The notes under the pieces: model-generated
Told to the model about the DNA's origin: nothing
The model's database searches: none
Seen by the model: the letters and a program-made list of their open reading frames with translations, nothing else
IMG/VR virus record: IMGVR_UViG_3300026191_000001
Coordinates: 61,405 to 81,404 of that record
Reading direction: 5' to 3' (one strand)
Length of the DNA: 20,000 bases
DNA from: an uncultured virus (IMG/VR IMGVR_UViG_3300026191_000001)
Taxonomy: Duplodnaviria > Heunggongvirae > Uroviricota > Caudoviricetes
Shown here: in pieces, positions 894 through 20,000 of the stretch
Position numbering within the stretch: the first letter of the stretch is position 1
Layout of the letters: each line of letters opens with the position of its first letter
Program-made: the position numbers and the translations under genes

Positions 894-922
894 ATAATAA
901 CCTAAAATTTGGAGATTGACGA
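894..922 (-). promoter_or_regulatory. Candidate sigma70-type promoter for the RHH gene
   Basis: Minus strand TCGTCA (922-917), 17 nt spacer, TATTAT (899-894). This places +1 near 887, just upstream of the SD at 874-880. The -35 matches only 4/6. Confidence 0.35.
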
Positions 923-924
923 TG
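907..924 (+). promoter_or_regulatory. Shared translation-initiation motif, copy 1 (ATTTGGAGATTGACGATG)
   Basis: Covers the SD and ATG(922) of the major tail gene. Can pair over 18 nt with 8301-8318, with two G-U pairs. Confidence 0.8.
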
Positions 925-1752
925 GCTGGTGAAGCTAAAACAACTGATTTTATGTTGGGTACTGCCACTGTAATGATTGGTAACCCAGAAGACCTCTATA
1001 AACTAAACCCAGAACAACATTCTGTGGGCCTAGTTAAGAATTTCACAATCGAAGCAACCAAGGAACGTTCTGACCTTACCCAAGGCCGAACTAACGATGT
1101 TGTTTTCACACTAACAACCGGTGCCACGACTCGAGGCACATTCGAAATGTACGAATACACTGAAAAGAACCTTGCTTACGCGTTGGGTCTAGACGGTGGG
1201 GAGTTGGTATCTCCTGAAGGTGATGCTCACGTAGTTAAGACTGCAGCTTCTTTCTCATCCGGTGCGGTATCCCTAGAACTCAATGATGGTACAGGACAGG
1301 ATATTAAGGTAGGTAGCTGGGTTAGTGTTCGCGACCCTATCTCAGAAAATATTGTTTTAGGTACCGTAACAAATGTTTCAGGGCTTACAACGGGTACGGC
1401 AGAAACCGCTACTATAGAAGTAGAAGTACCTGACAGCACTATGGCTTGGGAAGTTCCGGCTGGCGCATATGTATCCCTAGTAACGGTACTTGATGTGGGC
1501 TCAACGGATGTTGACCGAGACTTTGCCGCTAAGGTTCAAGGCCAGCTAGCTAACGGTAAGTGGATCACACTTCTTATTCCTAAGATGCGTGTTTCTTCAG
1601 GTCTTACTATGGCATTTGGTACCGACAACTTCGGTAATACACCATTTGAGTTTACGCCACTTAAAGTTACACCTTCCGATACTTACTATGCACCTTTCAA
1701 AGGTACCTCTGGTAAGTTGGTTCATGACTCAGTACAAAGCGCATTGTCGTAA
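922..1752 (+). CDS. Major tail (tube) protein
   Basis: ~276 aa from ATG 922 with GGAG SD. Beta-rich, T/G/V-rich sequence (FMLGTATVMIG, VGLVKNFTIE, FGNTPFEFTPL). Followed by a strong terminator, chaperone and tape measure, which is the canonical order. Confidence 0.8.
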   Translation: MAGEAKTTDFMLGTATVMIGNPEDLYKLNPEQHSVGLVKNFTIEATKERSDLTQGRTNDVVFTLTTGATTRGTFEMYEYTEKNLAYALGLDGGELVSPEGDAHVVKTAASFSSGAVSLELNDGTGQDIKVGSWVSVRDPISENIVLGTVTNVSGLTTGTAETATIEVEVPDSTMAWEVPAGAYVSLVTVLDVGSTDVDRDFAAKVQGQLANGKWITLLIPKMRVSSGLTMAFGTDNFGNTPFEFTPLKVTPSDTYYAPFKGTSGKLVHDSVQSALS

Positions 1753-1778
1753 AAACCCTGGGTTTAAAAACTGTTTAG

Positions 1779-1802
1779 AAGGCCTCTTCGGAGGCCTTTT
1801 TT
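1779..1802 (+). terminator. Rho-independent terminator after the major tail gene
   Basis: AAGGCCTC-TTCG-GAGGCCTT then TTTT: perfect stem with a cUUCGg tetraloop and a U tract. Confidence 0.9.
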
Positions 1803-1804
1803 AA

Positions 1805-1818
1805 GGAAATTGACGATG
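1805..1818 (+). promoter_or_regulatory. Shared translation-initiation motif, copy 2 (GGAAATTGACGATG)
   Basis: Exact 14-mer ending in ATG(1816) of the chaperone gene. Confidence 0.85.
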
Positions 1819-2163
1819 AGTGATAACCCTTCTGTAACCTTTAACATCAGCGTTAACGGCGAAGATAAAGAAGTTTTCATGAGTTTTGCGCTACTCAATA
1901 CCATCACAGGGTACTTTAGAAATGCGGAAGAACTCGAACAAATCCTCTTAAATTCCGACGTTCGAGCGAGTGTAATTACTGAACTCCTATCTGAAAGAAA
2001 TGAGACGGGCCGAATAACCCAGAATTTCGATATTAATACAATGAAGGCAGACCCAGACCAAATACTGGACTTGCTGGAATGGGTATCGGAGCACGTTGAG
2101 ACTTTTTTTATGAAGGCTCTACAAAGAGCCAAGCAACGAATGAAGAAGAAGCAGACCACTTAG
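1816..2163 (+). CDS. Tail assembly chaperone (lambda gpG-like)
   Basis: 115 aa acidic, helical ORF between the major tail and tape measure genes. Contains slippery T TTT TTT at 2103-2109. Confidence 0.8.
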   Translation: MSDNPSVTFNISVNGEDKEVFMSFALLNTITGYFRNAEELEQILLNSDVRASVITELLSERNETGRITQNFDINTMKADPDQILDLLEWVSEHVETFFMKALQRAKQRMKKKQTT

Positions 2164-2474
2164 AAGTCTTCAATTCTTGGTACCTAAAACTGTCGTTTGA
2201 AGAGCAGTTGTGTTTTGTTTTCGAAACGGTACCCAGCCAGCTACAGAAGATATTTTGGTCACATAGTAACCAAGATATCAAAGTTAAAACCAAGCTAACA
2301 CTTGGATTAAAGACTGTCACAATGACCCAAGAGTATGTGACGTTATTGAATGCCGCAGGGACTATCTTCGGTAAAAAAGAAAGTGGTTCAGGCAAGCCCA
2401 GACGTAAAACTACGAGCACGGTACCAAAAGATGAAATAGAAGCTGAGGCCCGAGCAAGAGCCGTTTTTGGGTAA
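2100..2474 (+). CDS. -1 frameshift extension of the tail assembly chaperone (gpGT-like; fusion 1816-2474, ~219 aa)
   Basis: The -1 frame is closed by TGA 2097-2099, then open from 2100 through the T7 run to TAA 2472-2474 (FYEGSTKSQATNEEEADHLEVFNSWYLKLSFEEQLCFVFE...). No convincing independent start or SD at the called TTG 2208. Confidence 0.8.
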   Translation, partial: DFFYEGSTKSQATNEEEADHLEVFNSWYLKLSFEEQLCFVFETVPSQLQKIFWSHSNQDIKVKTKLTLGLKTVTMTQEYVTLLNAAGTIFGKKESGSGKPRRKTTSTVPKDEIEAEARARAVFG

Positions 2475-2482
2475 CAATTAGG

Positions 2483-2496
2483 GGAAATTGACGATG
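2483..2496 (+). promoter_or_regulatory. Shared translation-initiation motif, copy 3 (GGAAATTGACGATG)
   Basis: Exact 14-mer ending in ATG(2494) of the tape measure gene. Confidence 0.85.
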
Positions 2497-5400
2497 GCCG
2501 GCAGCAATGCATCCAATACAATTAGAAATACCTTACTTAATTTTACCGTCGATCCTAAATCCAAAAAGGTAATCGAGGAACTAACTCGCGAGTTTGAAAA
2601 GCTAGAGCGGGTCACACAAGCCGCTAGTCAACAACTTCAAGCCAACATTAAGGCCATTAAGGACACCCCACAGGGGCGCTCTGAACTCGCCCAGAACGCT
2701 AAGAATGAAGTTAACACTCAGCGCAAAATCTTAAGTGAGAACCAAAAGAATGCGCGTGCGTTACTAGATCAAATTGCCTTAACCCTTGGGAAGGGACTCA
2801 ACCCTCAACAGCAACAGCAATTAGTGAAAGGGCTGAATCAAGCCTTTGGGGAAATTACAGGCCGCTTCACTAAACAGGCCCAAGCGCAAGCCAAGAAACA
2901 AGCAAAGGACCTTGCTGACTATTACGACCTTCAATTTCGTAAGAACCCTACCGTTCGAAAAGGAAGCCAGCTCTATAAGTCTCGAGTAAACACGTTAAAC
3001 GAAAGTGAATTGCGCACAGGGATTCAAAGGCAAAAGCTTTTACGTAGTGGAGCACAAAGTGCGCTTAACGATGCGATTCGCTTAGGTGATACCAGTCTTG
3101 AGAAGAAAGCTCAAAATGCGCTTAAGAAGCTCGAGTCAGGCTTAGTCGCTGCGGAAGCAAGACTAAAGAAATTTACCGACGCTTCTAAAAAAGCAGAAGT
3201 AGCGCAAGACACGCAAGCTCGAACTGTAAGACGAACCCTTAAATCCTACAATGATGATGAGTTTCGATTAAACCCTACCGTAGCTAAAGGGCAGAAGGTT
3301 AAAGCGTCTCAAATCTCTACGTTGAACAGAACTCAACTAGAGGACGCTATTGCTCGGAATAAGGTTTACGAGAATGCCGCCCGTAAAGCGCTGAAGTCCA
3401 GTCTCGCGCCGGAGACGAGAAATAAAACGCTAGAGAATAACGCGGGTAAAGCGCTAAGAGAACTTGAAGAATCAACCAAGCTTGCCAAAGCACGATTAAA
3501 AGAATTCGCTGATGCTGCGGCCGAGGCCAAGCGTGCTGAAAAAGCAGCACAAAAAGCCCAGAGGCCCTCGACACAAGTAACCGAACAACAGCGTGTCGCT
3601 CGTCGTATTGAACAGATTAGACAATCGCAAACCAATCAGCGCTTAGATGGCGGAGCCCAGCTATTCAGAAACCAAGGGCAGTTACTTCGTAACTACGCTG
3701 TGATGGGCGCCGGTGTTGGTGGTCTTGCAACGTCCGCGACGTTCTCAACTGAGCTAGATAGACAGTTCAAACAACTTCAATCCATTGTGAACCTCACCAA
3801 TGAGGAAATGGAAGAGCTGTCTAAAAACCTTATTGATGTTTCTGAAAAAACTAAGTTTACAGCCACGGACGTCGCAGATGCGGCCATAACGCTTGGTCAG
3901 GCTGGCTTAGGTCAAAATGATATCCAGAATGCGATAGAGGGAGTTACGCTCTTTGCTACCGCGGTAGGTTCTGACTTAAAAAGTGCCGTTGACCTCGCCA
4001 CATCAACATTAGGGGTATTTAATAAAGACAGTTCGCAGATGATCAACATAGTAGACAAAATGACTACGGCTGTGAACAGCTCAAAATTGAACCTTGATAA
4101 ACTTGCCTTAGGTCTTCAGTACTCGGGTAACTTAGCGGCCCAGTCTAATGTGACGTTTGAAGAAACGGTCTCCGCACTTGGCGCAATGGCTAACTCGGGT
4201 ATCCGAGCTGGTTCGACCCTTGGTACCGGCCTTCGACAAATTATTATATCCCTGCAGAAACCGTCAGAGTCTTTTACCGAGATTGTACACAACCTCGGGC
4301 TCTCAATGTCTGACCTAGATATTACGACTCACGGTTTGATACCAGTAATGAAAACGCTGGCCGAGAGTGGTTTTACTGTCCGTGATGCTATGGAAAGTAT
4401 GGAAGTGCGTGCAGCATCTGCATACGGAGCTTTTGCAAATAACATTAGCGTAGCGGAAGACCTAAGCGAACAAATGCGTATTGGTGGTTCTGCGGCCCGT
4501 GCGAACGACACGCAGATGGAAGCATTAGCTAACCAGTTAGACCGTTTGGGCTCTATCAGTAAATCGATTGTCTACGAGTCAATGGAGCCACTACTAGACA
4601 CCATTACCAAGCTTACTGAAAAGACCGCTGACTTTCTTTCAGTGGTAAGAGACCTCGGCCCCATTCTAAGCGCTTTAGCAGTACCGGCCTCGATACTAGG
4701 TGGCGTGCTGGCCACAAGGAGCGTTCTTCGTCTGGGCGCGGGGTTACTTGGCGGCGTGGATATGCTGACCGGAGGAAAAGGTAAAGGTAGCACAATCTCT
4801 AGGCTTGCTAAGGTTGCCACTGGTCGGGGATTAGGTACCGCGGCGGGGTTCGCCGCCCGTGCAATACCTGGGGTTGGCCTTGCTACTGCCGTAGGTACCG
4901 CGGGGGTTTATGGATATCAATATCTCGATGGCCGAGCCCGAGCTAATGACCGTGTTGATAGCACGCAAGCGGCCTTAAACCGTGGTACCTCTGAAACTAA
5001 GGTTTATGAAGACCAGCTTAAAAAAGTTGGGTCAGCTATTGATACGCTTATCTTAAAGCAAAATGACCTTACGAATAATGAGTCTCTTCAGCGCGAGATA
5101 CGTCGTCTTAACGATGAGTTTCGCCAGCAAGGGTTGTACATCGATGATTCGATAGACAGCTACGACAAGCTTATTACCAAGATGAAGGAGTTTGAAGATG
5201 CTACTCGGGATGGAGTGGGGTACCTTCAGAACCAAAACCGGAATAACTTTGTTGATAACTCGGAAGCTAAATTAAATGAGTTATTTTCAATCGGCTTTTT
5301 CGATTCATCTGAACGCAGACTTCTAGCCGAAGAGAAGGGAACGGATGTTAGCGTCGGTAGCGGTAAAACCGCGACCCAACGTGGCCGTTTTGCAAGTCGA

Positions 5401-7815
5401 GGAAATGTTTATAGAAGTCTGATAGATACAGCGCTGCCGAATTTTGGGGATGATCTTGCGGGTATCAACGAGCTTATTCGCAACATCAACCCTCAAGAGG
5501 CCGGTGCTTATGGCCGTGCACAAGAGGCACGCACGCAAACACAAGCATTGCAAAGCCAGTTATTTAATATCCTAAATCAATCTCCGCAAGAACTAGATTC
5601 CCTAATGCAGCAATTTGGCCTATCCGGTGATGCACGGGATAAAGCCGAAGAGTATATAAACAACCTTGCTCAAGAAATGCTTAATCGAGCGAACACGTTG
5701 CTGGAAGTGGAGAACAACCAGAAACAATACGATTCGTTAGACCCGAGTATCAAAGAGGAAGAGCGAAAAATTTCCCAAGTGGTAATTAAGAATCGTCGCG
5801 AACTGTTAAATGATATCGCTGAGACCAGCGAGGAAATCAATGCATTAACAGAGAAAAACAAAGACTACGAGACCAGTGACTACTTAGGCACATTTAAGGA
5901 CATAAACACACTGGTTCGTGACCAGATAAAAGCCTTGCTAGAAGATGAGAAAGAGGCCATTGCGGAATTAGAAGCGCAAGGGGTTTCTAACCCTAGACTT
6001 GTGCTTCAGGAACAAGGCTATTACCAAGCCGCAGGGGAAGCGAGAGGTAAGCTTGAGCGCTCACTACAATCGGCGGCGAAGGATGCTAGGCCGGATGCTA
6101 ATTTATATTACCCCGCACGACTGGCGGAGTTAGATAAAGAGCTGGATGTACTTCGTGATCAACTTCGCCAAGTTACGGACCGAGAAACTTCAGATGAAAT
6201 AAAAACTAAGCTCCAAGAACTAAACCTTGAGCGAGAGCGTGTGGCCAATGAGCAAGACACTCTCTTTGCGGCCATTGATGGTAACTCTCCTGTCTCTGTT
6301 GCTCAGCGAGACAGAGAGCTAAATGCTCGGGTTATCTTAGGGAACCAAGAATTCGATACGATACAAGCAAAGACCTTTGCAAGAAGTCGTCTCGAACGTT
6401 CTATTGGTGAACAACAAGACCTAGACGTTCGTGATTTTAAATTGCTTGGTGATGATGATGAGTTATCGCGTCTCTTAACTGATGTTATTGGTACGGAACA
6501 AGGTGAGATAAACAATGCTTTGGCCAAAGCACGGCAAGAAGCTGAAAAACTAAGAACCCAAGCGGAAGACACCCGCTATGAAGCCCAGCGCTATATTGAT
6601 ATCTCAAACAATGAAGGCTACACCGACGAAACCCGAGAGCGTGCCGCGGGTATTGCTAACGATATTGAGAGCCAAGCAGTACAACTAGAAAAAGAGGCGA
6701 TCGCTTTAGAAGAACAAGCCGTTCGACAAGCGAAAGAAGCCTTAATGGATTTTGCTAATTATCTTCAAGAAACCATTGTTGATAACCCCGCGCTAACGGA
6801 TGGCCGCTCTAAAGCGAAAACAAGAAAGTCTATTGAAGGACTTGAAGGGCAAAATATTAGTCTTGACTCTAATCTTGAGGACCTTTCACAAGCTTCTAAA
6901 GAAGCGGATCGTGGCCTACGGGAATTTAGAGACCAGATGGGGGACACGGTTCGAAAGATAAATCAGAGTATTTATGAAAGTGACCAGTTTCGCCAAACTC
7001 AAGCCGCGATTTATGGCACGCAGTATTCTCCTCTGGGGGAGCAAGGGGTTGATGAAACCTACGGAGGTCGAGGAGGAAAAGGTGTAGCTTCTCAGTTCGC
7101 TAACGCGGGTTCCTATATTGTTGATGAAGTTAATAGTAGTTACGAAAACTTTGACGTCTTAACCCAAATGACGATGGAAGCGACGGAAGCTGCTAAAGGT
7201 TTAGGTGATGCTTTTGGAGCAACGTTCGCGGATATCATTACAGGGGCCAGTGACTCAGAAGACGCATTCAGGTCATTAGGGGTAAGCATACTTACCGAAA
7301 TGGCCAATATCGCGACCCGCGCTTTAGCTAACCAGTTAATAATGTCACTCTTCTCTGGTCTCGGCCTGATGGGTGGAGGTATGGGCGGCGGAATGGGTGG
7401 TTTCTTTGGTGGAGGGATGTTTACTGGGGGTCCAGTAATAGCCGGTAGTTATAAGACTGGGGGATTAATTACCAGTGGGATGTCTACTCGAGATTCAACC
7501 TATGCCAAAGTGAGTCGTGGTGAGTTTGTTCTTCGCAAAGCGGCAGTAGATGCTTTAGGCCTAGAGACGGTCAAAGCACTCAACTCTGCCGACCCTAATA
7601 GTGTCAAAGATAAAGAAATGATGAATAGCAATGCTACCCAGGCTATGTCGGCATCAAATAGTGAAGGCGGCGGCGTTGTTAATGTTTACGTGGTAAGTGA
7701 GAAGCAATTACCACCTATGGGGCCAAACGATGTGAAAGCTATTATTGGTGATGATATCGCGAGAGACGGTGAACTTGCTTCACTGGTAGCACAGGTAGCA
7801 ATGAGGACTAAATAA
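2494..7815 (+). CDS. Tail tape measure protein
   Basis: ~1773 aa, A/Q/E/L-rich coiled coil. TP901-type core (TKFTATDVADAAITLGQAG, LGAMANSGIRAGSTLGTGLRQ). Typical C-terminal motif (GGLITSGMSTRDSTYAKVSRGEFVLRKAAVDALG). Confidence 0.95.
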   Translation: MAGSNASNTIRNTLLNFTVDPKSKKVIEELTREFEKLERVTQAASQQLQANIKAIKDTPQGRSELAQNAKNEVNTQRKILSENQKNARALLDQIALTLGKGLNPQQQQQLVKGLNQAFGEITGRFTKQAQAQAKKQAKDLADYYDLQFRKNPTVRKGSQLYKSRVNTLNESELRTGIQRQKLLRSGAQSALNDAIRLGDTSLEKKAQNALKKLESGLVAAEARLKKFTDASKKAEVAQDTQARTVRRTLKSYNDDEFRLNPTVAKGQKVKASQISTLNRTQLEDAIARNKVYENAARKALKSSLAPETRNKTLENNAGKALRELEESTKLAKARLKEFADAAAEAKRAEKAAQKAQRPSTQVTEQQRVARRIEQIRQSQTNQRLDGGAQLFRNQGQLLRNYAVMGAGVGGLATSATFSTELDRQFKQLQSIVNLTNEEMEELSKNLIDVSEKTKFTATDVADAAITLGQAGLGQNDIQNAIEGVTLFATAVGSDLKSAVDLATSTLGVFNKDSSQMINIVDKMTTAVNSSKLNLDKLALGLQYSGNLAAQSNVTFEETVSALGAMANSGIRAGSTLGTGLRQIIISLQKPSESFTEIVHNLGLSMSDLDITTHGLIPVMKTLAESGFTVRDAMESMEVRAASAYGAFANNISVAEDLSEQMRIGGSAARANDTQMEALANQLDRLGSISKSIVYESMEPLLDTITKLTEKTADFLSVVRDLGPILSALAVPASILGGVLATRSVLRLGAGLLGGVDMLTGGKGKGSTISRLAKVATGRGLGTAAGFAARAIPGVGLATAVGTAGVYGYQYLDGRARANDRVDSTQAALNRGTSETKVYEDQLKKVGSAIDTLILKQNDLTNNESLQREIRRLNDEFRQQGLYIDDSIDSYDKLITKMKEFEDATRDGVGYLQNQNRNNFVDNSEAKLNELFSIGFFDSSERRLLAEEKGTDVSVGSGKTATQRGRFASRGNVYRSLIDTALPNFGDDLAGINELIRNINPQEAGAYGRAQEARTQTQALQSQLFNILNQSPQELDSLMQQFGLSGDARDKAEEYINNLAQEMLNRANTLLEVENNQKQYDSLDPSIKEEERKISQVVIKNRRELLNDIAETSEEINALTEKNKDYETSDYLGTFKDINTLVRDQIKALLEDEKEAIAELEAQGVSNPRLVLQEQGYYQAAGEARGKLERSLQSAAKDARPDANLYYPARLAELDKELDVLRDQLRQVTDRETSDEIKTKLQELNLERERVANEQDTLFAAIDGNSPVSVAQRDRELNARVILGNQEFDTIQAKTFARSRLERSIGEQQDLDVRDFKLLGDDDELSRLLTDVIGTEQGEINNALAKARQEAEKLRTQAEDTRYEAQRYIDISNNEGYTDETRERAAGIANDIESQAVQLEKEAIALEEQAVRQAKEALMDFANYLQETIVDNPALTDGRSKAKTRKSIEGLEGQNISLDSNLEDLSQASKEADRGLREFRDQMGDTVRKINQSIYESDQFRQTQAAIYGTQYSPLGEQGVDETYGGRGGKGVASQFANAGSYIVDEVNSSYENFDVLTQMTMEATEAAKGLGDAFGATFADIITGASDSEDAFRSLGVSILTEMANIATRALANQLIMSLFSGLGLMGGGMGGGMGGFFGGGMFTGGPVIAGSYKTGGLITSGMSTRDSTYAKVSRGEFVLRKAAVDALGLETVKALNSADPNSVKDKEMMNSNATQAMSASNSEGGGVVNVYVVSEKQLPPMGPNDVKAIIGDDIARDGELASLVAQVAMRTK
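2923..3540 (+). repeat. Diverged ~109 aa tandem duplication in the tape measure N-terminus
   Basis: YDLQFRKNPTVRKG...TLNESEL...AEARLKKFTDA versus YNDDEFRLNPTVAKG...TLNRTQL...AKARLKEFADA. AACCCTACCGT occurs at 2944 and 3271 (327 nt apart). Confidence 0.8.
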
Positions 7816-8201
7816 TGTCATTGGAACAGTTTAATTTTATTTACCATAAGGTCTCTCATCGTTATAGGGACCGCTCAACTAAGTTGACCTTAGGTAATCA
7901 ATGGGACTATGTAACTAAGCCTACGGCCCCTGTTAGCAGGATATTTACATTGAAATATTCAGTAATGAAATATTTTGAAAATCCCCAACTTCTAGGTCCA
8001 AAGGAACGTCGGTATAGTGCTGATCATTTGGATGAGTTTTACCAACGTCACGAAACTTGGAAAGAGTTTATTTTTCAACACCACAAATTCGGGAATGTCG
8101 TGGTAAGGTTTGACCAACCCCTTGAGCTACCGGAAGGTATTACAGGGGGGGATGGCGCTATTGAACCTTTTACTATTACGTTGCGTGAGGTAGGACTTTA
8201 A
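7815..8201 (+). CDS. Distal/minor tail protein (lambda gpM-like)
   Basis: 128 aa, coupled to the tape measure stop (TAATG). Motifs LDEFYQRHETWKEFIF and the terminal FTITLREV resemble the gpM family. Confidence 0.75.
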   Translation: MSLEQFNFIYHKVSHRYRDRSTKLTLGNQWDYVTKPTAPVSRIFTLKYSVMKYFENPQLLGPKERRYSADHLDEFYQRHETWKEFIFQHHKFGNVVVRFDQPLELPEGITGGDGAIEPFTITLREVGL

Positions 8202-8238
8202 TTGATAAAATATTTATTAATTAATTTAAACAATATTA

Positions 8239-8267
8239 TTGACAATAAAATTGTGAGTCCGTAGTAT
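8239..8267 (+). promoter_or_regulatory. Near-consensus sigma70 promoter with AT-rich UP-like element
   Basis: TTGACA (8239-8244), 17 nt spacer, TAGTAT (8262-8267). Preceded by ~40 nt of almost pure A/T (8199-8238). Confidence 0.85.
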
Positions 8268-8274
8268 TGACCTC

Positions 8275-8352
8275 GGTTAGTAGTCCATGTGGCTCCTAAT
8301 TATCGTCAATTTCCAAATCAACGCCTCAGCCTTGCTGGGGTGTTCTGTTTTT
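8275..8352 (+). ncRNA. Candidate trans-acting antisense small RNA (~78 nt)
   Basis: Bounded by promoter and terminator. Predicted 5' hairpin 8275-8301, unpaired seed 8302-8320, terminator hairpin 8321-8343. The seed is the reverse complement of the motif at five tail gene starts. Ends are estimated. Confidence 0.75.
8321..8352 (+). terminator. Intrinsic terminator closing the candidate sRNA
   Basis: ACGCCTCAGC-CTT-GCTGGGGTGT (10 bp, two G-U pairs) followed by TCTGTTTTT. The G-U pairs only work on the + strand transcript. Confidence 0.75.
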
Positions 8353-8410
8353 GGGCGCTTGAAAAATATTCAATCTATTCCTCTTTTCGGTATACTAGGC
8401 GAAAATTGAG

Positions 8411-8424
8411 GGAAATTGACGATG
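8411..8424 (+). promoter_or_regulatory. Shared translation-initiation motif, copy 4 (GGAAATTGACGATG)
   Basis: Exact 14-mer ending in ATG(8422) of the gpL-like gene. Confidence 0.85.
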
Positions 8425-8910
8425 AAAGAACTTTCACAAGAAATTCAGTCTCAACGGCATTCGCTGACCCCTGAAGACTTAACCACCTATTTAGAAATCA
8501 TTATCGAAGACACCGATGGCCAGCCGGTTATTATTCGTCTTACGGATAGAGAAACCCGTGACTGGAATGGTTCCACATGGGTACATTCACCTTTTAAAGT
8601 CTCTGGTATATCCAATAAATCCACCGGAGAGAAGAACCGTCCTAGCCTATCACTCCCCAACGAGGGGGGGCTATACAGTTATTATCTAAACCAAGGCTTG
8701 TTAGAAGATTCGGTGGTGACACGCTACAAAGCACTTCCTCACGAAAAAGGTGGCTCTCTAACGTCTCGCCACGTTTTTTATGTTTCTCACCCTAGTAATA
8801 TTAGCTCGTCTATTCTCACCCTTCAGTTAAGAAGGCTTTCTGACGGTAATAAAACTAAGTTCCCCCCACGCAGATATATCCAGCCCGAATTTAGTACGGT
8901 AATAATATGA
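8422..8910 (+). CDS. Minor tail tip protein, lambda gpL-like (short, cysteine-free)
   Basis: 162 aa. WNGSTWVHSPFKVSGI...RPSLSLPN, VVTRYKA and FPPRR resemble the gpL N-terminal domain. Position between the M-like and K-like genes fits. Confidence 0.7.
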   Translation: MKELSQEIQSQRHSLTPEDLTTYLEIIIEDTDGQPVIIRLTDRETRDWNGSTWVHSPFKVSGISNKSTGEKNRPSLSLPNEGGLYSYYLNQGLLEDSVVTRYKALPHEKGGSLTSRHVFYVSHPSNISSSILTLQLRRLSDGNKTKFPPRRYIQPEFSTVII

Positions 8911-9404
8911 TCAAAGAATTAAACACCTTTTGCGGCCATATCTACGAACAGGGTATTCAAGACTGTTACACCCTAATTAGAGATTTTTATAAAACTCGTT
9001 ACCAGATGGAATTGACGAATTACGCGAGGCCGAACAACTGGATTCAAGACCCGAATTTAGATTTCTTTTCTAGGCTGTTTGAAAGAGAGGGCTTTGAGGA
9101 CACGAATAATTGTCCGCACAAAGTGAGGTTCGGTGATGTATTAATGATGCGAATTGTCGGAAGTGAAGTAGTAAACCACGTAGCTATCTACGTGGGACGA
9201 CAAAAGATCCTTCATCATTTGCAAGGCCGCGTAAGTGAAATCGTTGACTATGACGATAAATGGCGTTTTCGTGTGGTTCGTGTGATTCGACACCCAGAGA
9301 TTCAAAAAACCACGGATGCTGTAGCCCTTCACAATCTGCATAAAGGTTTACCTATTCACCTGCGTGCCAAATTACGGAGTGCTAAAAGTGAAAAAGTTGA
9401 GTGA
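8907..9404 (+). CDS. NlpC/P60-family tail tip protein (C-terminal half of lambda gpK type)
   Basis: GIQDCYTLIRDFY (catalytic Cys), GDVLMM, NHVAIYVG and ILHH motifs. ATGA overlap with the previous gene. Confidence 0.9.
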   Translation: MIKELNTFCGHIYEQGIQDCYTLIRDFYKTRYQMELTNYARPNNWIQDPNLDFFSRLFEREGFEDTNNCPHKVRFGDVLMMRIVGSEVVNHVAIYVGRQKILHHLQGRVSEIVDYDDKWRFRVVRVIRHPEIQKTTDAVALHNLHKGLPIHLRAKLRSAKSEKVE

Positions 9405-9723
9405 TTTATGGAATGAGAAAGCCGAGCGCTGTGGCTTTATTCTAAAGTCCGGTGAAATTGTTGAAGTCGATAACATAGCTGAAGACCCCAAGAATGAGTT
9501 TGAAGTCTCAGAGTCAGATTTTGAAAAGTACTACGAGGACACCGTGGCCTCGTGGCATTCACATACCGATGATTTTTCAAATCTTAGCTTATCAGACTAC
9601 TACACCTTTTTAGCTCTTCCAGAATGGGACCATTGGATAGTGTCGAAGTACAAAGTGGTTAAATTCTCGGTGAAGTCTGAATGTGTAATTTTAGAGGAGG
9701 TAGTCCCTCATGGTGACAATTAA
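9388..9723 (+). CDS. JAB/MPN (Mov34) domain tail tip protein (N-terminal half of lambda gpK type)
   Basis: ERCGFI ... WHSHT ... LSLSD matches the JAMM E-x-HxH-x7-S-x2-D pattern. GTG 9388 has GGAG 8 nt upstream, so it is preferred over 9364. Confidence 0.88.
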   Translation: MKKLSDLWNEKAERCGFILKSGEIVEVDNIAEDPKNEFEVSESDFEKYYEDTVASWHSHTDDFSNLSLSDYYTFLALPEWDHWIVSKYKVVKFSVKSECVILEEVVPHGDN

Positions 9724-10477
9724 TCTCGTGGGGTTTGGGGATACTATCCCTAAGGTTATTAAAACCGTTGCGGCCAATTATAGGGAAGCCCTTGAAGCAT
9801 TAAAACTGCAAGAGCCTTTTAATCCGCGTAAGGCTAAGGTTCGCTATGTTTGTGAGATAGAGGGAATTAACTCTACGCTAGACTTAGATGAGCCCGTTAA
9901 TGAAGGGGTAATGACCCTAAGACGCAAGCAAACACTTAAAACACTAAAAGGTTTTCAAGGTAGTGGGGGTAGTAATGGGTGGGTAAAAATAGTAGTCGGT
10001 ATTATCTTAATATCGATAGCCATTATAGCCCCACCAATTGCCGTGGGATTTACGGCTTTAGGCTCTGCGGGTATGGTAAGTGTTAATGTTTTATTAGCTA
10101 ATATTGGTTTTGCCTTAATCGTAGGGGGACTAGCACAGGAGCTCATGCCCACACCCGAGAACAATACTTCAGAAGAAACCAGCAATACCGCAACGTCTTA
10201 CCCTAACACCATACGTTCAGGTACCCCAGTGGCGATGATTTTTGGGCGCCATAGGTTCGGTGGCCACTTGTTCCAGTTTAATATTGAAAGTGTCGGTAGG
10301 TCTTCTGCAGATATTAGAAATTTTACTAACGTTGTTTGGGATGAAGTTAGTGACAACCGACGAGATTCTTGGTCTACTCTATACTTCAATAGTGAGTCTC
10401 AGGAAGTAGGCCAAACTACTTGGACCCCAAGAGGGGGTCGAGAGATTGATGGTATAAGAAACCAACGAACACTTTAA
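9710..10477 (+). CDS. Tail assembly protein, lambda gpI-like
   Basis: SD GAGGAGG. N-terminal ubiquitin-like part ending GSGG, then hydrophobic segments (KIVVGIILISIAII), then NTIRSGTPVAMIFGRHRFGG typical of gpI. Confidence 0.85.
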   Translation: MVTINLVGFGDTIPKVIKTVAANYREALEALKLQEPFNPRKAKVRYVCEIEGINSTLDLDEPVNEGVMTLRRKQTLKTLKGFQGSGGSNGWVKIVVGIILISIAIIAPPIAVGFTALGSAGMVSVNVLLANIGFALIVGGLAQELMPTPENNTSEETSNTATSYPNTIRSGTPVAMIFGRHRFGGHLFQFNIESVGRSSADIRNFTNVVWDEVSDNRRDSWSTLYFNSESQEVGQTTWTPRGGREIDGIRNQRTL

Positions 10478-10486
10478 AATCTGGAT

Positions 10487-10504
10487 AAATTGACGATATT
10501 GGGG
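10487..10504 (+). promoter_or_regulatory. Shared translation-initiation motif, copy 5 (AAATTGACGATATTGGGG)
   Basis: 12-nt perfect complement to 8301-8312, immediately upstream of the GGGG SD and GTG(10510) of the J-like gene. Confidence 0.75.
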
Positions 10505-10509
10505 CTTAA

Positions 10510-13500
10510 GTGGCGCATAACACGTTCAAAGGCCGCGGAGGGGGTAGTGGACCCTCTAATGACGCGGACAACCTATTTTCTACCGACGCATTTGAATTCG
10601 TCCTTGGAGTATCCGAGGGACCGATAGGCGGCGTCGTGGGTGATACCCCAGAAGAAAAGCTTCGCAATATCTTCATTGACGATACACCGGTATTCAACAG
10701 CCTAAATCAAACTAACTTTGATAACGCCAGCTTAATGCTGCGTTTCGAGCAAGGTACTTTGATTTCAGCAAAAGACGACCCTGAAGAAGGACAAACCCCT
10801 ATATGGTTTGCTTTAGGGGGACAAAATATTATTCAGCAAGTTTCTGCGAACTTAGCGTATCTCGCGCCGGTGACACGAACTACGGTTACAACAGTGTCGG
10901 GGTTCGATGAGATTGAGTTACGTTTTACGGTATCCCAGTTAGTTCGCTACACTGATGATGGTTCAAAAACCCACCGAGCTAACTTTCGAATCGAGTATAA
11001 AAACCTACTGGATGATAACTGGGTTTCTAGCTCTATGGTTATTTCGGGTAAAACCACGGTCAGTCCTTTTATAAAAGTTCATAATATACGCCTCCCTAGA
11101 ACTAAACCTAGTGACCAGTTTGAGATTAAAGTTACCCGTTTGACTGAAGACTCTAATGAGGAAGAAGTAGCGGCGATATCTTGGACTAGCTATGAGCTGT
11201 TAACTAAATCTGGTGACGCCTACACCGATAATGGTGTGGAATATAGCGACTCGGATTTAGAGTATCACCCAGGGCTTGCGATGATGCATGTGGTCGGGGT
11301 TCTTGGCCAGCAGCTCACAAATATCCCAAATGTCAGTGCCAACTATGACGGGATAAAGTGTTCAATACCTTCCAATTACGATCCTAAAGCCAAGACTTAT
11401 GAAGAGAGCTCGGCATGGGATGGTCAGTTTAAAGCTCAAAAGGCTACCACTGACAACCCCTTCTGGATTGCTTATGAGCTGGTTACCAATCCTGTTTGGG
11501 GCATAGTAAAAGCAAACCCCCGTGTGAAGATTAATCGTTATACCGTTTATCGTATGGCGAAGTACGCGGATGGTTATGACTTCCAGACTAATGAAAAGAA
11601 CTTAACCAATCCTATTACAGGACAGGAAAAGTGTCCTCGTTATACCTTTAATGCGGTATTGACTGAGCCTCAAAATGGGTGGGACGTTCTTCGTTATGTC
11701 TTAGGTAGTGCCTTCGCTAGGCCGATTGAAGAAGACTCAGGCGAAATAAAATTTATCGCAGATTTGCCAAGCCTACCCGTTGCTTGGGTTACTCCTGAAA
11801 TGTGTATGACCGAAACGGATGGGTCTCCATTCTCGTATAATTTTTCGGCACTATCTGAGCGCCACAATGCTGTGACTTCCAGCTACATCGATGCCTCACT
11901 AGATTATGAACAACAGTACGTTGCCGAGATTCGGGATGAGGACTCTATCCTTAAGTATGGATTGAATACCCACGAGTTTGATGCAAAAGGCGCGACGGAT
12001 ATCTGGGAAGTAAAACGTAGAATGACGTTTTATATCTCTTCCGTAACAACAGAGACTAGAACGGTTTCTTTTTCCGCACCCCAATTAGGGATGGAATTTG
12101 AACCTATGGATATTATCAATATTGTGGACCCCGAGACAGGGCATGCCTATTCGGGAAGAGCGGTTAAGTTAGAGAGCAAAGCGGTCACACTTAGAGACCC
12201 AGTGTATTTCGATGAGGGCGGGACCTATAACGTAAAAGTTATGGGGAAATACGAAAACTTCGATTTCACAATGGATGTGCTCCCTTCCGATATTGGTAAA
12301 CCTATCTACAGGTTGAAGCTAAAACAACCTATGCCGGACCTTGCACTATTTAATAAATATGCGCCGGTTGTGGTTTCAGCTTCAAGAAATGGCCAGCTTA
12401 TAGGTCTGCCCAAGCCATGGCGCATTATCACGGTAAACGAGAATGATAGCGTCCCCGAGCTTTATGACTTCTTTTGTCAGGAAGTAAACCTCAACAAACA
12501 CACAGATGCCGACAACCTTATTATTTCGGAAGCCCCTAAATACTCTTTTCTTCTGAGGCCACAAGTTCGAAAAGTTAAGAATCTTCGCGTTGTTGATGAA
12601 GAGCATATTCAGGTTCGTGGTGTAGAGCAGATAAACCTTTGGATTGGTTGGGAGCTAGAGGCCCCATTACCTCCTGGGGGTTATTTCGAGGTTCGCATTA
12701 CCGAACAATCCGTTAATGGTCGAGAGTACACCACAAAAACCAACAACCTTTATTTCGAAATTCAGAACGTAAAGCTTGGGGATATTCAAATAGAAGTACG
12801 CAGTGCTCAAGGGGATAACGCCAGCCCGTGGGCCGTTCTGCAATGGTCTACAACGATGGTTTCTGCCGAGGATTTGAGAGACGCGGGTATTACACCAGAA
12901 ATCACTATTCGCTATGAGAACTATGCTCTAACTATTGATAGTAAAGTAATGTTTGATTTCGGCTCGACAGAAGTTAACCGCGTTAACTTACTTGAGACCA
13001 ATGGTGTGTTGGGTATTCAGTTTAAGATATACGACGATGTGGACCCAGATAACCGCGTGCACCTTTTGACCAAGACCGCAAAGTCTTCGCTAATTATCCC
13101 TAAAAGCGAGTTTGAGGTTGCTGTTGAAGGTAAGGAACTGCCTTCAGATTTATATATTACAGCACGCGTAGTTGATCTTGTCGGAGGCTTTTACCCCGAC
13201 CTGTTCCAAAGTCCTCTAGCATTCCAAGTAAGTAACCCCGCGCAAGAGATAACGAACTTAAACTATCAATACGTTTTCTCGGATGAAGATCCGCATTTGG
13301 TAACGTGGTATGATAACAACTATGGGTATGAAATTACGCTTTATAAGCCGGATGGCCAGAGCGCGATTTCTAATTACAAGATATACGACAGTAGCCAAGT
13401 CTTCGGGTTCTTACGAGCAGCCGAGGGCTATGTCGTAAAAGTTAAGGGTTTTACTAATACACTCAGCTACGGCAAGCCTAAGACGATAACATTCACGGTT

Positions 13501-15072: not shown

Positions 15073-16511
15073 TGAGTTATATTAGAGACTTCACTTCCGT
15101 AACCATAAACCAGAATCAAACTGTAGTTCAGATTAACGCAGGGGATTCTAATTTTTCCGTAAAAGAAAACAGTCAGCTCTTTATCGAGGGTTATACCGTA
15201 CCAGTAACTATCGTTGAAAGTGATTCTAACGCTCGAACCTTAACACTGGATAAGCCGTGGCCCCATGCGAACGTTGACGGGGTTTCAGCCCGAGTCGTTC
15301 CACTGGGGGACCCTGACACCTACCTCACGGCGGTAGAGGCTAATCGTGCGGCTTATGAGGCGTTTGTAGAAGCTGCGGCGGGTTCAGGTTCAGGTTCGCC
15401 GGATGAAATCAACTGGTCAATAATAATTGACCCTCCCGTTACGGCTACACAGTGGCCCACTTGGGTACAAGTACAGGGTGATATAAATGAAGTGCTCCCT
15501 GAGACAGCAAAGCGTTTCCCTAATTTCCCTGAAATTGGGGGTAAGGTTTCTGTTGAGCAGTTGCCAGATGATATCGACACGGACAATAAACGAACACAGG
15601 CCCTAAGCCCACCTATAAAACGCGAAGCAAGCTTAACCCAGCGATTAAGTGATTATCCAACACTAAAGAAAACCGAAGTTCGACCAACAGAATCACCGAA
15701 CAACAAGCGCTTAATTCAGTTTGATGATGTGCGCGGCGAAGTTCACGTGGCACTGACAGATAGATGGTTCACCATACCTACCACTATTGCTAGTCGGGCT
15801 TTCCCAATTTTCTACCGTGGCTTGATACTGCGCTTCAATAACAATAGCGCTTACACAGGCAACATCAAAATGCGCGTCTATCCAATGGGAACGGGAGGTT
15901 TAGGTTTACCTAACAACCCAACGCTGGCTAATCACCAATGGCATGAGTATGAAACTACGGTCACTGACCTCTATAAAATAGGCGAGTTTAGTAGTCAGTA
16001 TTTTGAGGGGATTATTGAATATATCGAGCTAGATAACGGCTGGCACAGGTTTGATGTTGAGCAATCTGATGTGAGGTCGTTAAACGCAAAGTTTGATACA
16101 GCGTTTGGTACTTTGCGCTCACCCTTCAGAACTTTCTACCAAAAAGCGGATGGTTATTGGTACAGCGAAGATATGTTCCCCGAAAACCTACACAGTATTG
16201 GTGCTAGCTGGGCGCAAGACGCTAATAACCCGCGTGTGTTTACGGTGACCGAAGCCACCGCAAGCAATGATGCTCTTCGTTTCTTCAGCGATTCTTTTGA
16301 TGACTTCCAATTTGAAATAATTTTAGACGTTTCTTATGTCGCAGGAACACTGGCGTTAACGGTATCAAATGTAGATCCCAATAAAGTGTATTTCCAAGGG
16401 CCTGCACGGTTCATTACCGATGAACGAATCTATTTCAAACGAGCAGGTTCTTCTACTACCGCAGCACTTACCGTTGAGTCAATTAAAATGAGAATACCCC
16501 ATTATGGATAG
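15072..16511 (+). CDS. Side tail fibre / receptor-binding protein
   Basis: 479 aa, coupled to J. N-terminal anchor-like domain (TLTLDKPWP), GSGSGS linker, fibre-type repeat PVTATQWPTWVQVQG / PETAKRFPNFPEIGGK, beta-rich C-terminus. Confidence 0.7.
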   Translation: MSYIRDFTSVTINQNQTVVQINAGDSNFSVKENSQLFIEGYTVPVTIVESDSNARTLTLDKPWPHANVDGVSARVVPLGDPDTYLTAVEANRAAYEAFVEAAAGSGSGSPDEINWSIIIDPPVTATQWPTWVQVQGDINEVLPETAKRFPNFPEIGGKVSVEQLPDDIDTDNKRTQALSPPIKREASLTQRLSDYPTLKKTEVRPTESPNNKRLIQFDDVRGEVHVALTDRWFTIPTTIASRAFPIFYRGLILRFNNNSAYTGNIKMRVYPMGTGGLGLPNNPTLANHQWHEYETTVTDLYKIGEFSSQYFEGIIEYIELDNGWHRFDVEQSDVRSLNAKFDTAFGTLRSPFRTFYQKADGYWYSEDMFPENLHSIGASWAQDANNPRVFTVTEATASNDALRFFSDSFDDFQFEIILDVSYVAGTLALTVSNVDPNKVYFQGPARFITDERIYFKRAGSSTTAALTVESIKMRIPHYG

Positions 16512-19452: not shown

Positions 19453-19463
19453 AGAGATAAGCA

Positions 19464-20000
19464 ATGGCTACGGTTAATTTAAATCTAGCACTTCAGAGTG
19501 GTAGTCAAATACCACCCGAACTAAGTGTAATAAGCGGGAACTGGACGTTTCAAGGTAATGGGCTTTACATAGCAAATAGCGCATCAGGGCAAATTGAATT
19601 GGTTGATGCGACCGCCGACAATGATGTGACTATTTCATTCAGGCATGACGACACTAACGCGACAGGGAAATATTTCTCGTTCGAATTTCGGCGCGTTAAT
19701 GATGACAACTACATACGTGTAATTTGGGACCTAGCAACAGGCGTCTATCGAGTAGTTAAACGGGTATCGGGCACGAATACAGTGCTTTATGACGGTACGC
19801 ATAATTCTGGTGCGTCCGCGACATTGCGCGTTGTGACCTCTGGCTCTAGCATTACTGCATACGCTGATGCCGACGTGGTTTATTCTACGTCAAACGAACC
19901 ATTTAATCAGACGGTAGGCACTGCGATTGTAAATTTATCGCAGGGTTTTTACGGTATGAGTGCAGTGACATTTGAAAATCAGGCGGGTTCAGTGAACACC
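19464..20000 (+). CDS. Partial gene (not in the ORF track) with an N-terminal concanavalin-A/lectin-like beta-sandwich, probable tail-associated protein
   Basis: ATG 19464 after GAGAG. Open for 179 codons to the window end: MATVNLNLALQSGSQIPPELSVISGNWTFQGNGLY...FEFRRVNDDNYIRVIW...LRVVTSGSSITAYAD. Confidence 0.7.
   Translation, partial: MATVNLNLALQSGSQIPPELSVISGNWTFQGNGLYIANSASGQIELVDATADNDVTISFRHDDTNATGKYFSFEFRRVNDDNYIRVIWDLATGVYRVVKRVSGTNTVLYDGTHNSGASATLRVVTSGSSITAYADADVVYSTSNEPFNQTVGTAIVNLSQGFYGMSAVTFENQAGSVNT

Follow-up and report, generated by a model that had tools for sequence, protein, structure and literature searches.

Why does one short sequence stand at the start of so many genes of an uncultured tailed phage, and why does a single copy of it face the opposite way? 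This question is raised by a stretch of 20,000 nucleotides (the window), which is the last 20 kb, positions 61405-81404, of the single 81,404-bp contig IMGVR_UViG_3300026191_000001 (G000; G+C 44.7%) and which contains a lambda-like siphovirus tail module. A motif of 13-14 bases, GGAAATTGACGAT(G), here called the start-site tag, recurs in it at gene starts, and the one inverted copy lies in the gap between the gpM-like and gpL-like genes. A first inspection of the window, below referred to as the original prediction, had listed five copies of this motif at the starts of non-coupled tail genes and suggested that they mark independent ribosome entry points. In this study, we propose that the inverted copy is the seed of a small RNA (sRNA), which probably acts in trans on the tagged translation starts of the whole phage genome.

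A start-site tag and its single inverted copy

A scan of the window allowing <=2 mismatches gave six matches to the tag against 0.59 expected, a number reached in 0 of 200 shuffles. The six matches are as follows.

911..924, plus strand: tag of the major-tail-like gene, GGAGATTGACGATG, one mismatch (A4>G); the 13-mer at 911-923 is GGAGATTGACGAT
1805..1818, plus strand: tag of the tail chaperone gene, exact, directly after a GC hairpin and T-run
2483..2496, plus strand: tag of the tape-measure gene (PF10145), exact
8411..8424, plus strand: tag of the gpL-like minor tail gene, exact
10485..10497, plus strand: degenerate tag ATAAATTGACGAT of the gpJ-like gene, two mismatches, 13 nt upstream of the GTG start
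8302-8314, minus-strand match: inverted tag copy, exact

The five copies of the original prediction are all present, the first with one mismatch and the next three exact; the last, which had been placed at 10487-10498, occupies 10485-10497 and has two mismatches. The inverted copy had not been listed. The four proteins beginning with 'MTM' had been traced to the motif, and the open reading frames (ORFs) at 916, 1810, 2488 and 8416 were indeed called from the TTG inside it. Because the calls begin at this TTG, the 'MTM' proteins are an effect of the ORF caller, and the true start of these ORFs is likely the ATG formed by the last two bases of the motif and the following G.

The motif stands at non-coupled starts, as had been stated, but it is not restricted to tail genes, since about 40 genes carry it genome-wide. 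Exact copies in G000 number 28 (5 plus, 23 minus), and the total rises to 37 when <=1 mismatch is allowed and to 45 with <=2; nearly all of them stand at a start codon, on the strand of the gene that they precede. The 10-nt core AATTGACGAT occurs in 34 exact copies, 32 of which have the start codon of an ORF with >=40 aa no more than 21 nt downstream. The AT of the motif and a G make up the ATG in 21/34 core copies, and the ATG lies 2-3 nt beyond the motif in 6/34. In four copies the ATG is 15-21 nt beyond the core, three of these being behind a separate start region and the fourth belonging to a doubtful ORF at 49337. For the gpJ core copy, the automatic assignment was a doubtful TTG ORF of 42 aa, and the GTG start of the annotation lies 13 nt downstream. 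A reversed-pattern control gave 0 matches in five related genomes bearing 26-36 copies each. The genome-wide scan for position and strand bias, which the original prediction had suggested as a check, accordingly found the copies co-oriented with genes and in register with ATG.

The gene context was assessed with a rough gene model of 91 ORFs, obtained from 106 greedy ORFs by removing 15 that ran antisense to their module, and an ORF was considered gap-preceded when it lay >5 nt from the upstream gene. The tag precedes 37 of the 52 gap-preceded ORFs versus 3 of the 37 coupled ORFs, and one of those three is a spurious-ORF artefact. This distribution supports, on the scale of the genome, the idea of independent ribosome entry points. 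Within the window, the motif is absent from overlapping or abutting genes, which holds for those at 7815, 8907, 9710, 15072 and 16504, and the gap-preceded gene at 19464 is an exception without it, both as originally described. The tag is carried by early and late genes alike, and the untagged genes include the lysogeny genes for the integrase and the HTH regulator. In our reading, the motif is a phage-private translation-initiation tag, composed of a weak Shine-Dalgarno sequence GGA(A/G), a fixed spacer ATTGACG and ATG, which marks about 40 sites of independent ribosome entry.

The inverted copy is the only tag copy opposed to the local gene direction. The gap in which it lies measures 214 nt and holds a sigma-70 promoter match, the seed and a terminator, with a further promoter-like site behind them.

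8239..8267, plus strand: sigma-70-type promoter of the predicted sRNA, TTGACA, 17 nt, TAGTAT, 10/12 consensus matches, behind an A/T-rich stretch
8274..8353, plus strand: predicted 80-nt sRNA with 5' stem-loop, unpaired seed, terminator hairpin and U-run
8302..8314, plus strand: seed ATCGTCAATTTCC, exact complement of the tag, pairing extendable to 8296-8319, 34 nt past the promoter
8320..8353, plus strand: Rho-independent terminator, 11-pair stem, loop CTT and T-run, beginning 5 nt after the seed
8369..8396, plus strand: second promoter-like site, TTCAAT, 16 nt, TATACT, as read from the sequence

The promoter is the second-best sigma-70 match in the window, and the terminator is the top terminator match. 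The RNA 8274-8353 folds with a minimum free energy (MFE) of -22.7 kcal/mol and a z of -3.66, none of 200 shuffles being as stable, and the mean unpaired probability of the seed is 0.93. Predicted seed duplexes of -15 kcal/mol or stronger were found for 89% of the 47 tagged starts of G000; the strongest in the genome (-27.0 kcal/mol) is that of the tag at 911..924, and even the degenerate gpJ-like tag reaches -19.7 kcal/mol. These features suggest that the inverted copy is the seed of an sRNA-like gene with a predicted RNA product. This complementary sRNA gene lies within the very interval covered by the original prediction, which had not seen it, and it supports the idea of control at the RNA level raised there. 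An Rfam covariance-model scan (cmscan) of the whole window with E up to 1 gave 0 matches, so none to the c4 RNA (RF01695).

A minus-strand gene start at the inverted copy was considered and rejected: the ORFs following it are not conserved, with 3 codons in G000, 3 in the related genome G001, 10 in Pseudoalteromonas phage KB12-38, 12 or 54 in G006 and 25 in G007. The promoter-like site at 8369-8396 may restart transcription into the gpL-like and distal tail genes, and the segment 8354-8410 around it is 89-98% identical in relatives whose gpL is ~90% identical.

Two further observations concern the tag. On the plus strand of G000, at 32612-32624, a near-copy GAAAATTGACGAT, complementary to the sRNA over 14 contiguous bases, is found at ~codons 3-7 of the HTH_3 regulator gene, just within its 5' end, and it is kept in G003 and G004; the sRNA might also act on this regulator. 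In the early region of G000, an intergenic cassette consists of a GC hairpin of the GGGGGAATGTTCTCCCC type, then AATTAACTTTTA(A/C)AATT, then the tag, as seen upstream of the tag copies at 34852, 35896, 38151, 39087, 41529, 44013, 45029, 47204 and 47909. An analogous cassette in KB12-38 comprises nine GGGGTAACGTTACCCC hairpins and ATTAAACTAAAAC. The TTAACTTT part of the cassette presumably resembles the 'epsilon' enhancer of T7 gene 10.

Seed and tag in five lineages

The unit between gpM and gpL was found in five lineages, three of them beyond the nearer relatives having been reached by a terminase-alignment search and GenBank tblastn, and gpL identity falls from 99-88% through 69%, 45% and 42% to 36%. 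Each lineage has its own pair of seed and tag.

G000-type lineage (gpL 99-88%): seed ATCGTCAATTTCC, own tag GGAAATTGACGAT
Lineage with gpL 69% (three contigs): seed ATCGTCGATTTCC, gpL tag GGAAATCGACGAT
G006 (gpL 45%): seed CTCATCGTCAATTT, own tag ATTGACGATGA
G007 (gpL 42%): seed TCATCGTCGATTT, own tag GGAATCGACGATGA
Pseudoalteromonas phage KB12-38 (gpL 36%): seed TTGTCAATCCAA, own tag TTGGATTGAC(A/G)

The layout is common to all five: the promoter elements are spaced by 16-17 nt, the predicted RNA measures 63-82 nt, the seed is exposed (unpaired probability 0.5-0.93), and a terminator hairpin is present, whose sequence differs. Among nine IMG/VR relatives with gpL identities of 88-99%, the whole gap is almost unchanged and the differences fall in loops; the sRNA segment is 97-99% identical in relatives whose gpM/gpL DNA is 78-84% identical. 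In the lineage with gpL 69% (L135), pair 4 of the terminator is changed from C-G to T-A and the loop is also different. In a MAFFT alignment of seven sRNAs, that of KB12-38 was poorly aligned.

Changes in the seed are matched by changes in the tag. The contigs with 69% gpL identity show a compensatory pair, seed A to G with tag T to C, and their seed ATCGTCGATTTCC is complementary to GGAAAT(C/T)GACGAT. In KB12-38, GGATTGACR is present in 24 copies versus <=2 in four other phages. Conservation of the targets also tracks the extent of the seed, as position +4 is A at a frequency of 0.7-0.9 in G006 and G007, where the seed runs past the ATG, and is not conserved in G000. When the sRNAs were paired with the tags of all genomes, each paired best with the tags of its own genome, with diagonal medians of -18.4 to -22.6 kcal/mol. 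The A-seed RNA on C-type tags gave a median of -16.3 kcal/mol versus -22.3 kcal/mol for the cognate G-seed RNA, and G001 contains C-type and T-type tags mixed by region. Speculatively, specificity groups may be drawn from this pairing matrix.

The whole genomes of four distant relatives (Achromobacter phage 2-1, Caulobacter phage Seuss, Xylophilus phage Lumi and Acinetobacter phage EAb13) contain no such repeated 13-mer. Their gpM and gpL genes leave no room for an sRNA unit, being overlapping in three of the four and separated by 44 nt in the remaining one. No relative was returned by a prophage search of genome contigs with the gpL alignment or by a comparison of KB12-38 gpL with IMG/VR, and a metagenome scan added no lineage; an exact 14-mer scan of IMG/VR gave mostly single chance matches and was uninformative for relatives.

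G000 also encodes a ProQ/FinO-domain protein (PF04352, E 7.5e-13, 48.9 bits against a cut-off of 27), which matches the N-terminal domain of E. coli ProQ (5nb9) with E 1.7e-6. Such a protein is encoded in 7/7 near-complete tag-bearing genomes (G000, G001, G003, G004, G005, G006 and KB12-38) and in 0/7 tagless relatives, namely the four named phages, for which tag absence was judged from whole genomes, and G010, G011 and G012, for which it was judged from 20-kb loci. In the fragments G002 and G007 the gene is absent. At the start of the ProQ/FinO gene itself (G000 11502-12014, minus strand), a degenerate tag AATTGACGAG stands 6 nt further from the ATG, with a weak duplex of -14.1 kcal/mol; this gene may escape the sRNA.

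Considering these results, we have arrived at a model that we regard as likely, in which a trans-acting sRNA is directed against start sites genome-wide by a mechanism like that of RocC/RocR. A moron-like unit between gpM and gpL, with its own sigma-70 promoter and terminator, would produce an RNA of ~80 nt, whose single-stranded seed would cover both the Shine-Dalgarno site and the start codon on each tagged mRNA by base-pairing and block 30S binding. The phage's own ProQ/FinO-domain protein probably holds and delivers the sRNA, and genes translationally coupled to a tagged gene would presumably be silenced along with it. One RNA would then serve as a genome-wide translational brake, switching off most of the phage at once. 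The discreteness of the RNA, its pairing in trans, the translational repression and the role of ProQ as chaperone are all inferred. The least certain element is the timing: action in lysogeny and in superinfection immunity seems most likely, and timing of lytic growth less likely. Action in the lysogen and against superinfecting relatives is suggested by the unit's own promoter, its moron-like position and the untagged integrase and regulator genes.

RNA pairing or another role for the repeats

The variation among targets bears on whether the tag is read as RNA or as DNA. In the A-seed genomes (G000, G003, G004 and G005), target position 7 is only T, with 0 C, and in the G-seed genomes (G001 and G002) it is mixed C and T. 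In KB12-38, a U of the seed stands opposite targets that mix A and G; the G000-type seeds have C there, and their targets have G almost without exception. Tagged starts of five genomes (47, 37, 26, 10 and 25 targets) were compared with the seed complement, and the differences comprised 74 transitions compatible with G·U pairing and 10 that are not, besides 86 transversions, which fall mostly at the edges. When A to G changes next to GG were left out, ~35 compatible versus 10 incompatible transitions remained. At the level of sequence, the ATG register, the G·U variation and the promoter/terminator frame of the single inverted copy point to RNA rather than DNA, and for these reasons the DNA site (operator or -35 element) that the original prediction had offered as an alternative fits less well. 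The reading of TTGACG as a -35 element was rejected, as the -10 element and the transcription start would fall within coding sequence.

Metatranscriptome data were available as assembled contigs, from which starts, ends, strand and level cannot be read. Parts of the sRNA stretch are contained in 17 metatranscriptome rows from several studies. Contig X3 (8274-9151) starts where the predicted RNA does and extends past the terminator into the gpL-like gene and those after it, and contig X4 (8244-9005) begins behind an adapter-like loose end, so the X3 and X4 studies do not end at the same place. Some runs left parts of the stretch uncovered, and contig depth changes across 8274 in X3 and across 8244 in X4; no weight was given to either feature. 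The X3 start at 8274 documents presence in RNA libraries and is a weak hint of the promoter.

A number of observations weigh against the proposed sRNA. X3 runs through the terminator to 9151, so termination is unsupported by the contigs, and the discrete 80-nt RNA with its transcription start and 3' end is a prediction. Covariation alone is no proof of RNA pairing, because an inverted DNA site would covary too, and the G·U bias is drawn from few variable positions and could be due in part to A to G changes that were selected because the resulting GGAG is a stronger Shine-Dalgarno site. The hairpin of G007 has no clear U-run, hairpin plus U-run being present in the other 4/5 lineages, and in KB12-38 the seed is half buried in the 5' stem, with an unpaired probability of 0.5. 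Among the 52 gap-preceded ORFs, 15 lack the tag and mostly have ordinary GGAG-type Shine-Dalgarno sites. A mechanism of relief would be required, because late genes of the operon that encodes the RNA would be among its targets; the ORF-less unit described below is one candidate. Finally, the co-occurrence of tag and ProQ probably reflects one clade and about one evolutionary gain, and for that reason it has little statistical weight, while still being coherent with the other evidence.

Among other explanations, the 13-mers could be DNA sites at which a monomeric phage repressor stops elongating RNA polymerase, in the manner of stoperators, the inverted copy being one more site. In the portions available to us of this and the other published accounts cited below, the Cluster A stoperators share several traits with the tag: short intergenic spaces hold more than 20 asymmetric 13-bp sites, which follow the direction of transcription, as in L5, and serve genome-wide silencing and immunity specificity (PMC9283540). 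The phage studied here is temperate and has an HTH_3 regulator, one copy sits inside the 5' end of that gene, and an inverted site would covary with the others. However, stoperators are DNA sites of a two-domain repressor with no start-codon register in that account, and a reversed stoperator was inactive in the L5 data (PMC9283540). A position independent of the start codon was not observed here, the ATG being formed by the motif in 21/34 core copies and lying 2-3 nt on in 6, and the tag includes a Shine-Dalgarno position that would be needless for a transcription block. Moreover, variation obeys G·U rules, a conserved promoter and terminator flank the lone reversed copy in five otherwise diverged lineages, and an RNA chaperone gene accompanies the tag. 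A single HTH_3 protein was seen, of 106 aa, versus 183 aa for the two-domain L5 repressor (~180 aa for an HTH plus Stoperator-domain repressor), no search with a Stoperator-domain protein having been made. On balance, we regard a stoperator-like role as unlikely.

The tag could also be an optimal ribosome-binding sequence or translational enhancer independent of any sRNA, with the gpM-gpL unit as a cis leader masking the gpL start. The read-through RNA 8274-8445 does fold the seed onto the gpL tag in cis (MFE -50.9 kcal/mol, z -3.40), a metatranscriptome contig covers 8274-9151, and the start-associated sequence (SAS) motifs of Cluster K have been discussed as possible translation signals (PMC3203893). 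Against this, the seed tracks the genome-wide consensus and not only the gpL copy, e.g., the gpL copy of KB12-38 mismatches the seed complement while the consensus matches it, and the targets of G001 are mixed C/T. The terminator directly after the seed is conserved, and the tag varies by lineage, which would be unexpected for an enhancer aimed at the conserved ribosome; we consider a cis leader quite unlikely. Pairing of the tag with 16S rRNA beyond GGA is likewise disfavoured, given that the tag is not the same in all lineages and varies with a phage-encoded element. It is highly improbable that the repeats are recombination linkers or copied gene-boundary cassettes with no regulatory role and the inverted copy a chance remnant. 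The copies do often share an upstream cassette (hairpin plus AATTAACTTTTAAAATT), the genomes are mosaic, and C-type and T-type tags are mixed by region in G001, but the almost complete retention of 13 nt at ~40 sites in several genomes is incompatible with neutrality, and the inverted copy is fixed in place with promoter, fold and terminator across 36-99% protein identity.

Precedents, setting and meaning of a phage-wide translational brake

The proposed sRNA has its nearest mechanistic analogue in RocC/RocR of Legionella pneumophila, in which a FinO/ProQ-domain protein is likewise encoded alongside a dedicated trans sRNA with a terminator hairpin, and RocR represses several mRNAs by base-pairing in the regions where their translation starts (PMC9977716). 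The 3' terminator hairpin with a single-stranded tail, to which FinO domains bind, is predicted here as well, with the U-run in 4/5 lineages. In contrast to the four chromosomal competence targets described for RocR (PMC9977716), ~40 targets are predicted here, nearly all the independent starts of a virus genome. The box also includes the start codon and co-evolves with the seed between lineages, and the system is phage-borne, its binding and repression being predicted.

With respect to the motif, the nearest relative is the SAS of Cluster K mycobacteriophages (Pope et al. 2011), which is also a private asymmetric 13-bp motif with a Shine-Dalgarno core, found in one orientation just before many start codons (PMC3203893). 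Its consensus GGGATAGGAGCCC differs from the tag, and it is described for non-structural genes only, 3-7 bp from the start (PMC3203893), whereas the tag occurs at early and late genes and usually includes the ATG; the tag is an analogue of the SAS and not a member. A single SAS copy in the opposite orientation, with no obvious gene start, was reported in four Cluster K phages, the function being left open as 'RNA or protein' (PMC3203893). This lone reversed SAS copy presents the same pattern as the lone inverted tag. The available part of that account mentions no complementary RNA, unlike the sRNA predicted here.

The nearest phage precedents appear to be c4 and STnc6030, and the stoperators would be the analogue at the DNA level. 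The c4 antisense RNA of P1/P7 is also a small phage RNA that pairs around a ribosome-binding site and whose sequence sets immunity specificity, but its target is one mRNA (ant) of its own operon (PMC12197685), whereas many dispersed targets in trans are predicted here. In FinP/FinO of F-like plasmids, a mobile element carries an antisense RNA that has a FinO-type chaperone (PMC9977716), and STnc6030 of prophage BTP1 is an antisense RNA from the late-gene region of a mobile element (PMC12197685), both as here. FinP and STnc6030 block expression and give exclusion (PMC9977716; PMC12197685); they are cis-antisense RNAs with long complementarity to one gene, in contrast to a 13-17-nt seed predicted to reach many genes in trans. 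A literature search found no paper on this system or on the motifs of these phages, and the genome-wide scope was likewise not met in it. The mechanism would be a variant of known sRNA repression, and its genome-wide scope is seemingly new.

The tail module of the window, in which the predicted sRNA gene lies, contains the following genes.

Start 916 (ORF call), plus strand: major-tail-like gene, 276 aa
Starts 1810 and 2208: tail chaperone genes
Start 2488: tape-measure gene (PF10145)
Start 7815: gpM-like gene
Start 8416 (ORF call): gpL-like minor tail gene
Starts 8907 and 9364: NlpC/P60 and JAB genes
Start 9710: gpI-like gene
Start 10510 (GTG): gpJ-like gene (PF13550, PF24801)

The rest of G000 encodes an integrase, the HTH_3 regulator, replication and recombination genes, a lambda-gpA-type terminase and the ProQ/FinO-domain protein; no phage RNA polymerase was seen in a protein domain scan of G000. 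The sole match to a published phage at the nucleotide level is to Alteromonas phage vB_AmeP_PT11-V19, with 81% identity in tail-fibre genes. Based on the integrase/HTH_3 gene content and on this only published match, G000 is probably a temperate marine phage with an Alteromonas-like host. The matching segment, 15605-19467 of the window, shares 81% nucleotide identity with tail-related genes of vB_AmeP_PT11-V19, the two phages being otherwise unrelated at the DNA level, which suggests that a host-recognition module was exchanged and gives a hint of the host genus.

Elsewhere in the window, a 113-aa ORF at 525-866 on the minus strand is antisense to the late operon and has a canonical GGAGGA Shine-Dalgarno sequence without the tag. 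It had no Pfam or PHROG match, and its label as an 'RHH protein' in the original prediction could not be confirmed; it may be a second moron. At 1778-1804, a GC hairpin with TTCG loop and T-run stands between the major-tail-like gene and the tag of the chaperone gene, and it would be the usual means of keeping the output of the major tail protein above that of downstream products.

A candidate for a decoy of the sRNA lies outside the window, at 49169-49468 on the minus strand of G000. This ORF-less unit has a promoter-like TTGACC, 15 nt, TATACT and a tag copy with a 19-nt seed match, the best in the genome, with no ATG. Behind this copy come ~130 nt without conservation at the protein level and a strong terminator, next to which lie iteron-like GGTTCTxGGGT repeats. 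G003, G004 and G005 retain the unit, and in G001 and G002 its tag is of the C-type. ORF-less tag copies with extended seed matches are also present in KB12-38 and G006. The RNA of 49169-49468 could be a decoy of the sRNA, or a replication-linked RNA under its control. In G006, three ORF-less tag copies 49 nt apart, one of them a 17-nt seed match, are interleaved with four near-palindromes GGTGTGACACC at 43800-44000, an arrangement suggestive of an early promoter/operator region with the sRNA target in its leaders.

Taken one step further, and only tentatively, the tag, the anti-tag sRNA, the ProQ/FinO protein and the decoy RNA might together form an RNA-based master switch and immunity system. 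Within a lysogen, the sRNA would silence the independently translated lytic genes of the prophage and of incoming phages with the same tag, the decoy would titrate the sRNA, and changes in tag and seed would define immunity groups; the same principle may explain the SAS of Cluster K. Examples of such groups would be the tag T to C change answered by seed A to G, and the shorter tag of KB12-38. G-seed RNAs would cover both tag types, and C-type tags would escape A-seed RNAs.

If the proposed sRNA acts in this way, a virus would address nearly all of its independent translation starts by one private tag, one small RNA and its own chaperone. This would be the counterpart, at the level of translation, of the way in which repressors silence transcription genome-wide, and it would give a whole genome a simple, programmable off-switch. 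Phage-encoded FinO/ProQ proteins, whose existence is mentioned in the review literature available to us with no function given, would thereby obtain one. RNA-defined immunity groups are predicted, readable from sequence alone. The model would also offer a testable answer to a question open since 2011, namely what purpose start-associated sequences have in phage genomes.

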